A stretch of DNA of 64,000 nucleotides from Cetorhinus maximus (Eukaryota), in NCBI RefSeq assembly GCF_964194155.1, contig NC_135899.1:2542001-2606000 (forward strand), in the 5' to 3' direction. Below are positions 15,996 to 16,664 of the stretch, piece by piece (within the stretch, counting starts at the first letter, position 1; each line of letters begins with the position of its first letter). The position numbers and the translations under genes were made by a program. Under the pieces are notes generated by a model. That model searched no databases, was not told where the DNA came from, and saw only the letters and a program-made list of their open reading frames with translations.

Positions 15996-16664
15996 TCACC
16001 GTTTTGCTCCTTGTCCGGTTCCCCCGGGGATGTTCTCAGCTCCGGCCCCTGGTTCACCTTCCTCTCCCCGGGCGGCCGGATCAGCCCCTGGCGCCGGCTC
16101 CTTGGCCACTTTCCGGGGCCGCCCGCGCGGCCTCCGGACGCCGCTGCCCTTGGAGACTTTCCTCGGGCCGGCGCCGCCCTTGCTCCGGCCGCCCGGCTTC
16201 GGCTTCTTCACCTTCACCCGGGCCGGGCTCCTCTTCATCTTCCCCTTGCGGCCGGCGGCCGGTCTCCCCCGCCGGCCCCGGGCTTTGGGTGTCGGAGCAG
16301 CGGCGGCGGCCGCCGGGCGGCTCTGGCCGTCCAGGTGCTGCCGGTTGATCCTGAAGGAGCCCGAGGCCCCGGTGCCCGCCGTCTGCAGCAGCGAGCCCTC
16401 GGTGACCAGGCCCCGGACCGCCTGGTTCACCCGCGAGTTGATCCGCGGCACATCGTAGCCGGCGGCCGACAGCGCCTTCTTGACGCCGGCCAGCGAGAGG
16501 CCGCGGCGCTCCCGGGAAGACGCCACCACCTCCAGGATGTGGGCGGCCATGGTGGGCGCTCCCCCCGCCGCCGCCGGCGCCCCCTGCCACACCTTGGCCG
16601 GGCTCCTCCGCCTCCTCACCTTCCTGCCTCGGGAGGGGCCTTCGAGCAGGTCGCCCGAAGCCAT
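15996..16664 (-). CDS. Divergent histone H1-like protein E with AT-hook (222 aa)
   Basis: Globular domain ILEVVASSRERRGLSLAGVKKALSAAGYDV..GSLLQTAGTGASGSFRIN; RRPRGRPRK at 16110-16136; stem-loop. Confidence 0.9.
   Translation of the reverse strand: MASGDLLEGPSRGRKVRRRRSPAKVWQGAPAAAGGAPTMAAHILEVVASSRERRGLSLAGVKKALSAAGYDVPRINSRVNQAVRGLVTEGSLLQTAGTGASGSFRINRQHLDGQSRPAAAAAAPTPKARGRRGRPAAGRKGKMKRSPARVKVKKPKPGGRSKGGAGPRKVSKGSGVRRPRGRPRKVAKEPAPGADPAARGEEGEPGAGAENIPGGTGQGAKR

Follow-up and report, generated by a model that had tools for sequence, protein, structure and literature searches.

The question raised by this locus of Cetorhinus maximus is whether a linker histone gene, whose product was read in the initial annotation as a hybrid of H1 and HMGA, is indeed related to HMGA proteins or is an H1 in which a short AT-hook-like motif has taken shape. 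The gene is located on contig C22 within the window, i.e. the whole stretch of 64,000 nucleotides analyzed, and codes for a protein of 222 aa, hereafter the 222-aa H1. Its features are the following:

15996..16664, minus strand: H1 coding sequence, an open reading frame in a single exon, 222 aa with 31 arginines and 18 lysines (R/(K+R) 0.63)
16344..16556, minus strand: H1 globular domain, residues 37-107 (Pfam PF00538 Linker_histone, E 1.5e-14)
16599..16625, minus strand: N-terminal basic patch RKVRRRRSP, residues 14-22, with an SPxK site, from the sequence
16110..16136, minus strand: canonical AT-hook sequence RRPRGRPRK, residues 177-185, from the sequence; earlier state RRLGGRPRK
16260..16280, minus strand: second core RGRRGRP, residues 129-135, in this genome only; earlier state RGRQRRA, (R/W)QGRA in Carcharodon
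15999..16100, minus strand: mildly acidic C-terminal 34 residues, six of them D or E, net charge -3; common to subfamilies A and C (see below)
15892..15936, minus strand: histone 3' stem-loop (15931-15916) with downstream element (Rfam RF00032, 34.4 bits; pattern match)
16665..16838, minus strand: 5' UTR, with a putative start of transcription near 16835; of 19 dispersed copies, 11 start within 16821-16838
15933..15990, minus strand: A-rich 3' UTR stretch 5' of the stem-loop, within which all 19 of these copies end

The match to PF00538 scores 54.4 bits against a cut-off of 22.4, and the best PDB match of the globular domain is human H1.3 (E 1.8e-21). Basic tails (net charge of the tail +25) accompany the domain, as is characteristic of H1, and the single exon, the 3' stem-loop and the location in a histone cluster are those of a replication-dependent H1 gene. 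The replication-dependent vertebrate histones H1.1-H1.5 likewise have the three-part layout with the globular domain, a single exon, the stem-loop and the clustered location. The 222-aa H1 differs from them in being Arg-rich, with 8% lysine versus about 30%, in the loss of two lysines, in the GRP motif and the acidic end, and in lying on C22, apart from the canonical Lys-rich H1 genes, about 110 of which are located on C32 and C39 (150 of 179 candidates scored). Because it has neither the Lys-rich tails nor the conserved globular lysines of somatic H1, N80 and A96 replacing the latter, it is regarded as an H1 variant and not as the somatic type. A further site of the SP type, SPxR, is found at residue 146. 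The stem-loop was not mentioned in the initial annotation.

Besides the 222-aa H1 gene, the window contains three divergent H1 genes in full and a fourth as a cut end, together with genes for H2A, H4 and H2B. All of these have a stem-loop; eight of the nine stem-loop pattern matches in the window belong to histone genes. The additional H1 genes are:

6508..7482, plus strand: Arg-rich H1 paralogue of subfamily B with the degenerate motif KRLVGRQRR; stem-loop at 7541
3316..3888, minus strand: divergent H1-like paralogue ending with RPVGRKR; stem-loop at 3279
10406..10948, minus strand: divergent H1 paralogue, long-branched and unsure in placement; stem-loop at 10378
14341..14500, minus strand: 3' part of a subfamily C H1 with its stem-loop, truncated by a 200-N assembly gap

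A related histone group is situated about 250-280 kb away on C22 and includes a second copy of the 222-aa H1 gene, which encodes an identical protein, shows 99.5% identity over 1,278 bp and is also located near a gap; it either arose by recent duplication or is an artefact of the assembly. Three H2A genes (1801-2190 in the window, L054 and L058) are identical over 111 aligned residues across 300 kb; together with the cut H1 end at the gap, they suggest that the region was either recently duplicated or mis-assembled. A divergent H4 and several divergent H2B genes are found at 21716-22027 and 22963-23343 in the window and at L053, L055 and L001. The H4 is 94-95% identical to canonical copies, the H2B genes are 65-70% identical to each other, the H2B of the window has an Arg-rich N-tail, and all these genes but one have a stem-loop match; they likely represent a germ-line core-histone set. 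The H1-like gene at 3316-3888 and those at L051:294-950 and L053:2203-3036 possess a heavily eroded globular domain, an intact frame and a stem-loop, and all end with RPVGRKRVAGKRR; the first of them gave no match when the genome was searched with Pfam. Frameshifted subfamily B duplicates without a stem-loop match are present at three places (L059, L060 and L061; C22:9.8 and 10.0 Mb, and C239). Two H1 genes of the canonical clusters, L063 on C39 and L064 on C32, have long-branch globular domains (1.1-1.2 changes per column); compared with these, the Arg-rich family is closer to bony-vertebrate H1. The rest of the window includes the first exon of a SAPCD-type gene (43361-43789, plus strand; Pfam SAPC2_N, E 3.5e-25), broken reverse-transcriptase-like frames of a LINE recognized by eye (60411-61965), and simple-repeat blocks at about 11-14, 42-47 and 51-52 kb. 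SAPCD1 sits in the mammalian MHC class III region, and the H1t gene, which has a stem-loop, belongs to an MHC-linked cluster. The cluster described here shares its contig with MHC class I genes, comparably to H1t; these lie at 26-32 Mb of C22, about 24 Mb from the cluster.

The first protein search returned 13 proteins including the gene's own product, the closest being two Carcharodon proteins (83-84% identity), and the profile search gave 155 matches, of which the best 120 were listed; shark orthologues are 50-84% identical to the 222-aa H1. In the globular-domain tree (53 rows, 76 columns), 34 rows form an Arg-rich cartilaginous-fish clade with a support of 87/83, which is moderate for 76 columns and comes from bootstraps not yet settled. 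It comprises subfamily A, to which the 222-aa H1 belongs (96/93), subfamily B (99/99) and subfamily C (95/85). The second tree, with bootstraps likewise not settled, recovers the clade at 91/84 apart from the H1.0-like gene of this genome and from P0125, which we take to be an H1t-like domain and which groups with amniote H1s. In the trees, built without plant sequences, the globular domain of the 222-aa H1 nests among replication-dependent vertebrate H1s. Several members of the family are present in chimaera, and databases name its proteins only "histone H1-like". The median R/(K+R) is 0.57 in the family (n=35, i.e. the rows fixed from the first tree plus P0011) versus 0.16 in other H1s (n=228, including a few cartilaginous-fish members found later, one of them with PVGRPRL). 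The 222-aa H1 is thus almost certainly a member of this Arg-rich cartilaginous-fish family.

When aligned with human H1.3, the 222-aa H1 has N80, E89 and A96 in place of lysines. Asparagine occupies position 80 in 34 of the 35 family proteins, this position being lysine in 170 of the 228 other H1s, and lysine is absent from position 96 in all 35 and present in 197 of the 228. Positions 80 and 96 presumably correspond to Lys69 and Lys85 of GH5. Both GH5 residues are given as DNA-binding in PMC9635857. Two conserved lysines of the globular domain, presumably DNA contacts, have been lost family-wide. A teleost H1 group with long N-tails (P0108, P0148, P0201 and P0227; Chanos, Osmerus, Aplochiton and salmonids) also has both losses, apparently by convergence, and is located elsewhere in the tree.

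All three basic motifs reported in the initial annotation, the hook at 16110-16136, the second core and the N-terminal patch, are present exactly as described. The sequence RRPRGRPRK fits the published AT-hook definitions, with the G-R-P core and basic flanks (PMC4615771) and the central R-G-R stressed for HMGA hooks (PMC11354804), and it contains the core RPRGRP of the HMGA consensus TPKRPRGRPKK as given in the latter paper. According to the former, GRP with basic flanks can bind RNA too. The Pfam AT-hook model was not among the four families listed at E ≤ 10, which is a weak test for a single 9-residue motif. The initial annotation had also allowed for a chance origin in an R/G/P-rich sequence. 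When the 115-aa tail was shuffled 200,000 times, RGRP was found once in 6.7% of the shuffles, PRGRP in 0.84%, two RGRP in 0.19% and [RK]PRGRP[RK] in 0.05%, indicating that the full hook is rarer than the tail composition predicts and a lone RGRP is not. The VGRP[RK]K form at the matching site of paralogues (see below) also speaks against plain chance, and so do the steps to the canonical hook, which look non-random. RGRP at unrelated positions is present in P0013 and in the paralogue at 6508.

Conservation of PRGRP across sharks, on which the initial annotation made its hybrid reading depend, was not found. PRGRP is present in 3 of the 11 full-tailed subfamily A sequences, namely in this genome and two Carcharodon proteins, all lamniform-type in a sampling of two lamniform species, and the second core is unique to this genome, being absent even in Carcharodon. 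Heterodontus and Heptranchias have RRGVGRPR[KR] at the hook site, catsharks RRLGGRLRK, and carpet sharks RR(or WR)[P]xG[RH]IR, where the proline of G-R-P is gone. R178, G181 and R184 are near-invariant in subfamily A, with P179, R180 and P183 varying, and the top conservation windows surround the hook (n=11; 0.82-0.88 versus a mean of 0.67). Close to the C-terminus, subfamily B proteins of sharks, skates and rays possess a [KQ]RP[VI]GRPRK-like stretch, which aligns with the hook of the 222-aa H1 and, in the form KRPVGRPRK, is the best-conserved part of the subfamily B tail; RSVGRPR is the best of 180 seven-residue windows (n=17; 0.84 versus a mean of 0.44). At the matching site, paralogues from sharks, skates and rays have basic-x-V-G-R-P-[RK]-K, and one chimaera protein has KVGRPKK. 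This VGRP-type motif is AT-hook-like and lacks the central R-G-R. In total, GRP[RK][RK] is found in the tails of 18 of the 35 family proteins (subfamily A 5/12, B 12/17, C 0/3, chimaera 1/3) versus 1 of the 228 other H1s. Among 138 new representatives, the multi-GH1 protein P0144 has an N-terminal KRGRP and the canonical H1 P0168 has TGRPKK. The loss of the proline in catsharks and carpet sharks and the absence of GRP from subfamily C indicate that the motif is dispensable in some lineages. Judged from these counts, the conservation of the subfamily B tail and the published AT-hook definition, the GRP motif is an ancient feature of the family that some lines have lost and that the lineage of the 222-aa H1 has sharpened.

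The dispersed copies of the gene make it possible to follow this sharpening. A search with the 3' 371 bp of the gene found the two gene copies and at least 38 dispersed copies on 17 other contigs (40 of 45 candidates were scored, and all retrocopy counts are lower bounds). The history alignment includes 30 copies, 28 of the 38 dispersed ones and two from the protein search. T is found at 16129 in 26 and G at 16127 in 24 of the 28 copies with letters there, corresponding to RRLGGRPRK, which resembles the L-G of catsharks; two replacements have thus made a canonical AT-hook from an inherited GRP motif. One 92%-identical copy shows the modern hook altered by a single CpG decay, and P-G is found in another. 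That L179 of the copies results from CpG decay was rejected, since other sites that were CpG throughout are changed in 3-12 copies versus the 26 of 28. The copies could also derive from a lost sister gene. Compared with the copy majority, 22 codons of the gene show a replacement and 5 a silent change, of which 16 and 5 are located in the tail; for 239 and 95 tail sites, respectively, the ratio is about 1.3, i.e. the rate is about neutral. Five of the 16 tail replacements build the two RGRP cores. In simulations that introduced 21 random changes into the earlier tail (40,000 runs, two mutation spectra), PRGRP appeared in 0.07-0.09% and two RGRP in 0.01-0.02% of the runs. This suggests that selection shaped the hook, and it is regarded as support and not as proof, the test being post hoc and the hook motif being the reason why the gene was selected from a very large scan. 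Copying of one hook onto the other was rejected as their codons differ, and so was GC-biased conversion, as a hand count gave nine weak-to-strong and nine strong-to-weak changes, i.e. no bias.

Flanks were checked for 19 of the dispersed copies, with the start and end positions given in the list above. Neither a stem-loop nor a poly(A) tail was found in these 19, and the target-site duplication is clear in one and possible in another. Searches of the same type gave at least six matches for the subfamily B paralogue (two dispersed copies, three frameshifted duplicates and the gene itself) and at least three for the subfamily C paralogue, one of them dispersed. Six of the matches that the family-wide search gave outside the clusters are copies of the 222-aa H1 gene, and of seven further extra-cluster places retrieved, two are nearest to canonical H1. 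Tailless histone retropseudogenes have been described in therian mammals, with 51 human histone cases, as primed at A-rich single-stranded sites and dependent in number on germ-line expression (PMC5322556). The shark copies are likewise dispersed, end at A-rich sites and have no poly(A), and differ from the therian ones in that at least 38 derive from one H1 variant, mostly without clear target-site duplications. Since such copies need germ-line expression, their excess over those of the paralogues (at least 38 versus 2 and 1) argues that the 222-aa H1 is probably expressed in the germ line. The copies record past expression in the germ line or early embryo and are silent on sex and stage. The nearest ESM clusters bear the automatic names spermatid-specific H1, protamine-like and testis-specific H1, which are leads only, and germ-line histone variants are said to turn over fast in PMC8857922. 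Four putative-RNA runs (assembled contigs) contained short pieces from relatives in three cases and none in the fourth, and are uninformative as to tissue.

Polyadenylation upstream of the stem-loop, at AATAAA 15986-15981, was rejected as the source of the copies, as these have no poly(A) and mostly possess AAAGAAA or plain A-runs. Independent copies at C2:88.18 Mb (L005), C3:47.66 Mb (L006) and C2:179.28 Mb (L019) and one in the run X1 contig share the end base 15951 and have similar flanks, with a near-palindromic repeat having about six bases in common with the mRNA end; this repeat is likely an insertion hot spot used by target-primed microhomology. The dispersed copy at C18:82381869-82382498 (L002) is still open over 210 aa and shows the old LG state. 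The Carcharodon proteins P0004 and P0003 are encoded on different chromosome-size contigs, and the former may be an intact young retrocopy.

Vertebrate HMGA1/2 have three hooks, a dense acidic tail and introns, and no globular domain. The 222-aa H1 does not have this composition and is a replication-type stem-loop H1 variant, not an HMGA fusion; its single exon, stem-loop, histone cluster, globular domain among replication-dependent H1s and one full hook instead of 3-8 give no indication of HMGA ancestry. The C-end is acidic as in HMGA1/2, with no sign of common ancestry. The acidic segment following the hook, EPAPGADPAARGEEGEPG, does exist (residues 189-206), as the initial annotation stated, and is weak, the longest acid run in the last 34 residues being two. 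The hybrid reading is partly supported: the globular domain, the hook and the mild acidic end are there, and signs of kinship with HMGA, several full hooks and conservation of the canonical hook across sharks are not. H1t (H1.6), HILS1 and fish protamine-like H1s are divergent, more Arg-rich germ-line H1s, as the 222-aa H1 appears to be, and differ from it in not being orthologous on the trees and having no GRP[RK][RK] in the tail. The literature search found no report of the Arg-rich family or of an AT-hook in an H1 from sharks or other vertebrates, most subscription papers being outside its reach. GH1 with AT-hooks was reportedly observed by Kotlinski in 2017 in some proteins from outside plants, large ones of fish among them, and therefore no priority among vertebrates is claimed.

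The explanation we consider on balance to be the probable one is that of a germ-line-type stem-loop H1 of the Arg-rich cartilaginous-fish family, in which the inherited GRP motif has turned into a predicted hook for AT-rich DNA; judging by its sequence, this hook would, with modest confidence, bind the AT-rich minor groove. A not particularly likely alternative is that the stretch is a general basic patch for nuclear or nucleolar import, RNA binding or charge, of which the family retains the basic residues, the lamniform PRGRP being drift in an R/G/P-rich tail. The tail indeed evolves near neutrality, a lone RGRP is frequent in shuffles (6.7%) and occurs at unrelated positions in two relatives, and in subfamily A the basic scaffold of R178, G181 and R184 is near-invariant, whereas P179, R180 and P183 vary. 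Subfamily B, however, keeps V-G-R-P with its uncharged residues (GRP[RK][RK] in 12 of 17), and the five tail replacements converge on the two RGRP cores through different codons.

A functional counterpart of plant GH1-HMGA, with hooks aimed at AT-rich satellites and an HMGA-like acidic tail, is quite improbable. Such proteins also have the H1 globular domain followed by AT-hook sequences, here accompanied by the acidic end, their lysine content is similarly low (7.5-8.9% in poplar, PMC11931866, versus 8%), and this species has two RGRP cores 48 residues apart. Yet plant GH1-HMGA carry 3-6 or 5-8 AT-hooks according to PMC9635857 and PMC11931866, whereas the 222-aa H1 has one full, lineage-limited hook not fixed across its family and one species-specific core, acquired by point change within a vertebrate H1 clade. 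The acid run of at most two, the stem-loop histone gene and the lack of an HMGA-like cluster among the ESM neighbours listed also disagree with this reading. Finally, it is very improbable that the protein is a protamine-like sperm nuclear protein packaging mature sperm DNA, even though the Lys-to-Arg shift (0.57 versus 0.16), the RRRRSP patch and the protamine-like ESM neighbours are in its favor. K+R make up only 22%, below the 35-50% of PL proteins, and dogfish sperm are packed by true protamines; the acidic end also disagrees, and a stem-loop mRNA fits earlier germ-cell stages. Sharks are said in PMC13148410, after Bloch 1976, to use PLs, which is a point for the protamine-like reading.

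If the favored explanation of a germ-line H1 with a predicted hook is right, the globular domain lacking two lysines would have a weaker hold on the nucleosome dyad. The Arg-rich tail and the minor-groove hook would compensate for this by binding linker DNA with a leaning towards AT, and this binding would be loosened by the acidic end and the SP phosphorylation sites. The outcome would be a linker histone that is exchangeable and serves germ-cell chromatin until sperm proteins replace it. The 222-aa H1 may work a little like GH1-HMGA.

DNA binding by vertebrate H1 tails is generally ascribed to their charge and to S/TPxK motifs. How a linker histone gains sequence preference would find a natural test in a family whose GRP hook is conserved, the three natural states VGRP, LGGRP and PRGRP being comparable. 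The cluster suggests that the oldest jawed-vertebrate lineage has germ-line histone variants not yet described, and the retrocopies are a rare within-genome record of the stepwise birth of a motif. A broader and rather doubtful scenario would be that a germ-line H1 family kept since before the split of sharks and chimaeras traded lysines for a tail AT-hook, that lamniform selection sharpened the hook to the HMGA form and in this species added a second one, possibly in conflict with AT-rich germ-line repeats; the 222-aa H1 would then be a GH1-HMGA-like protein in the making, and the retrocopies its dated fossil series.
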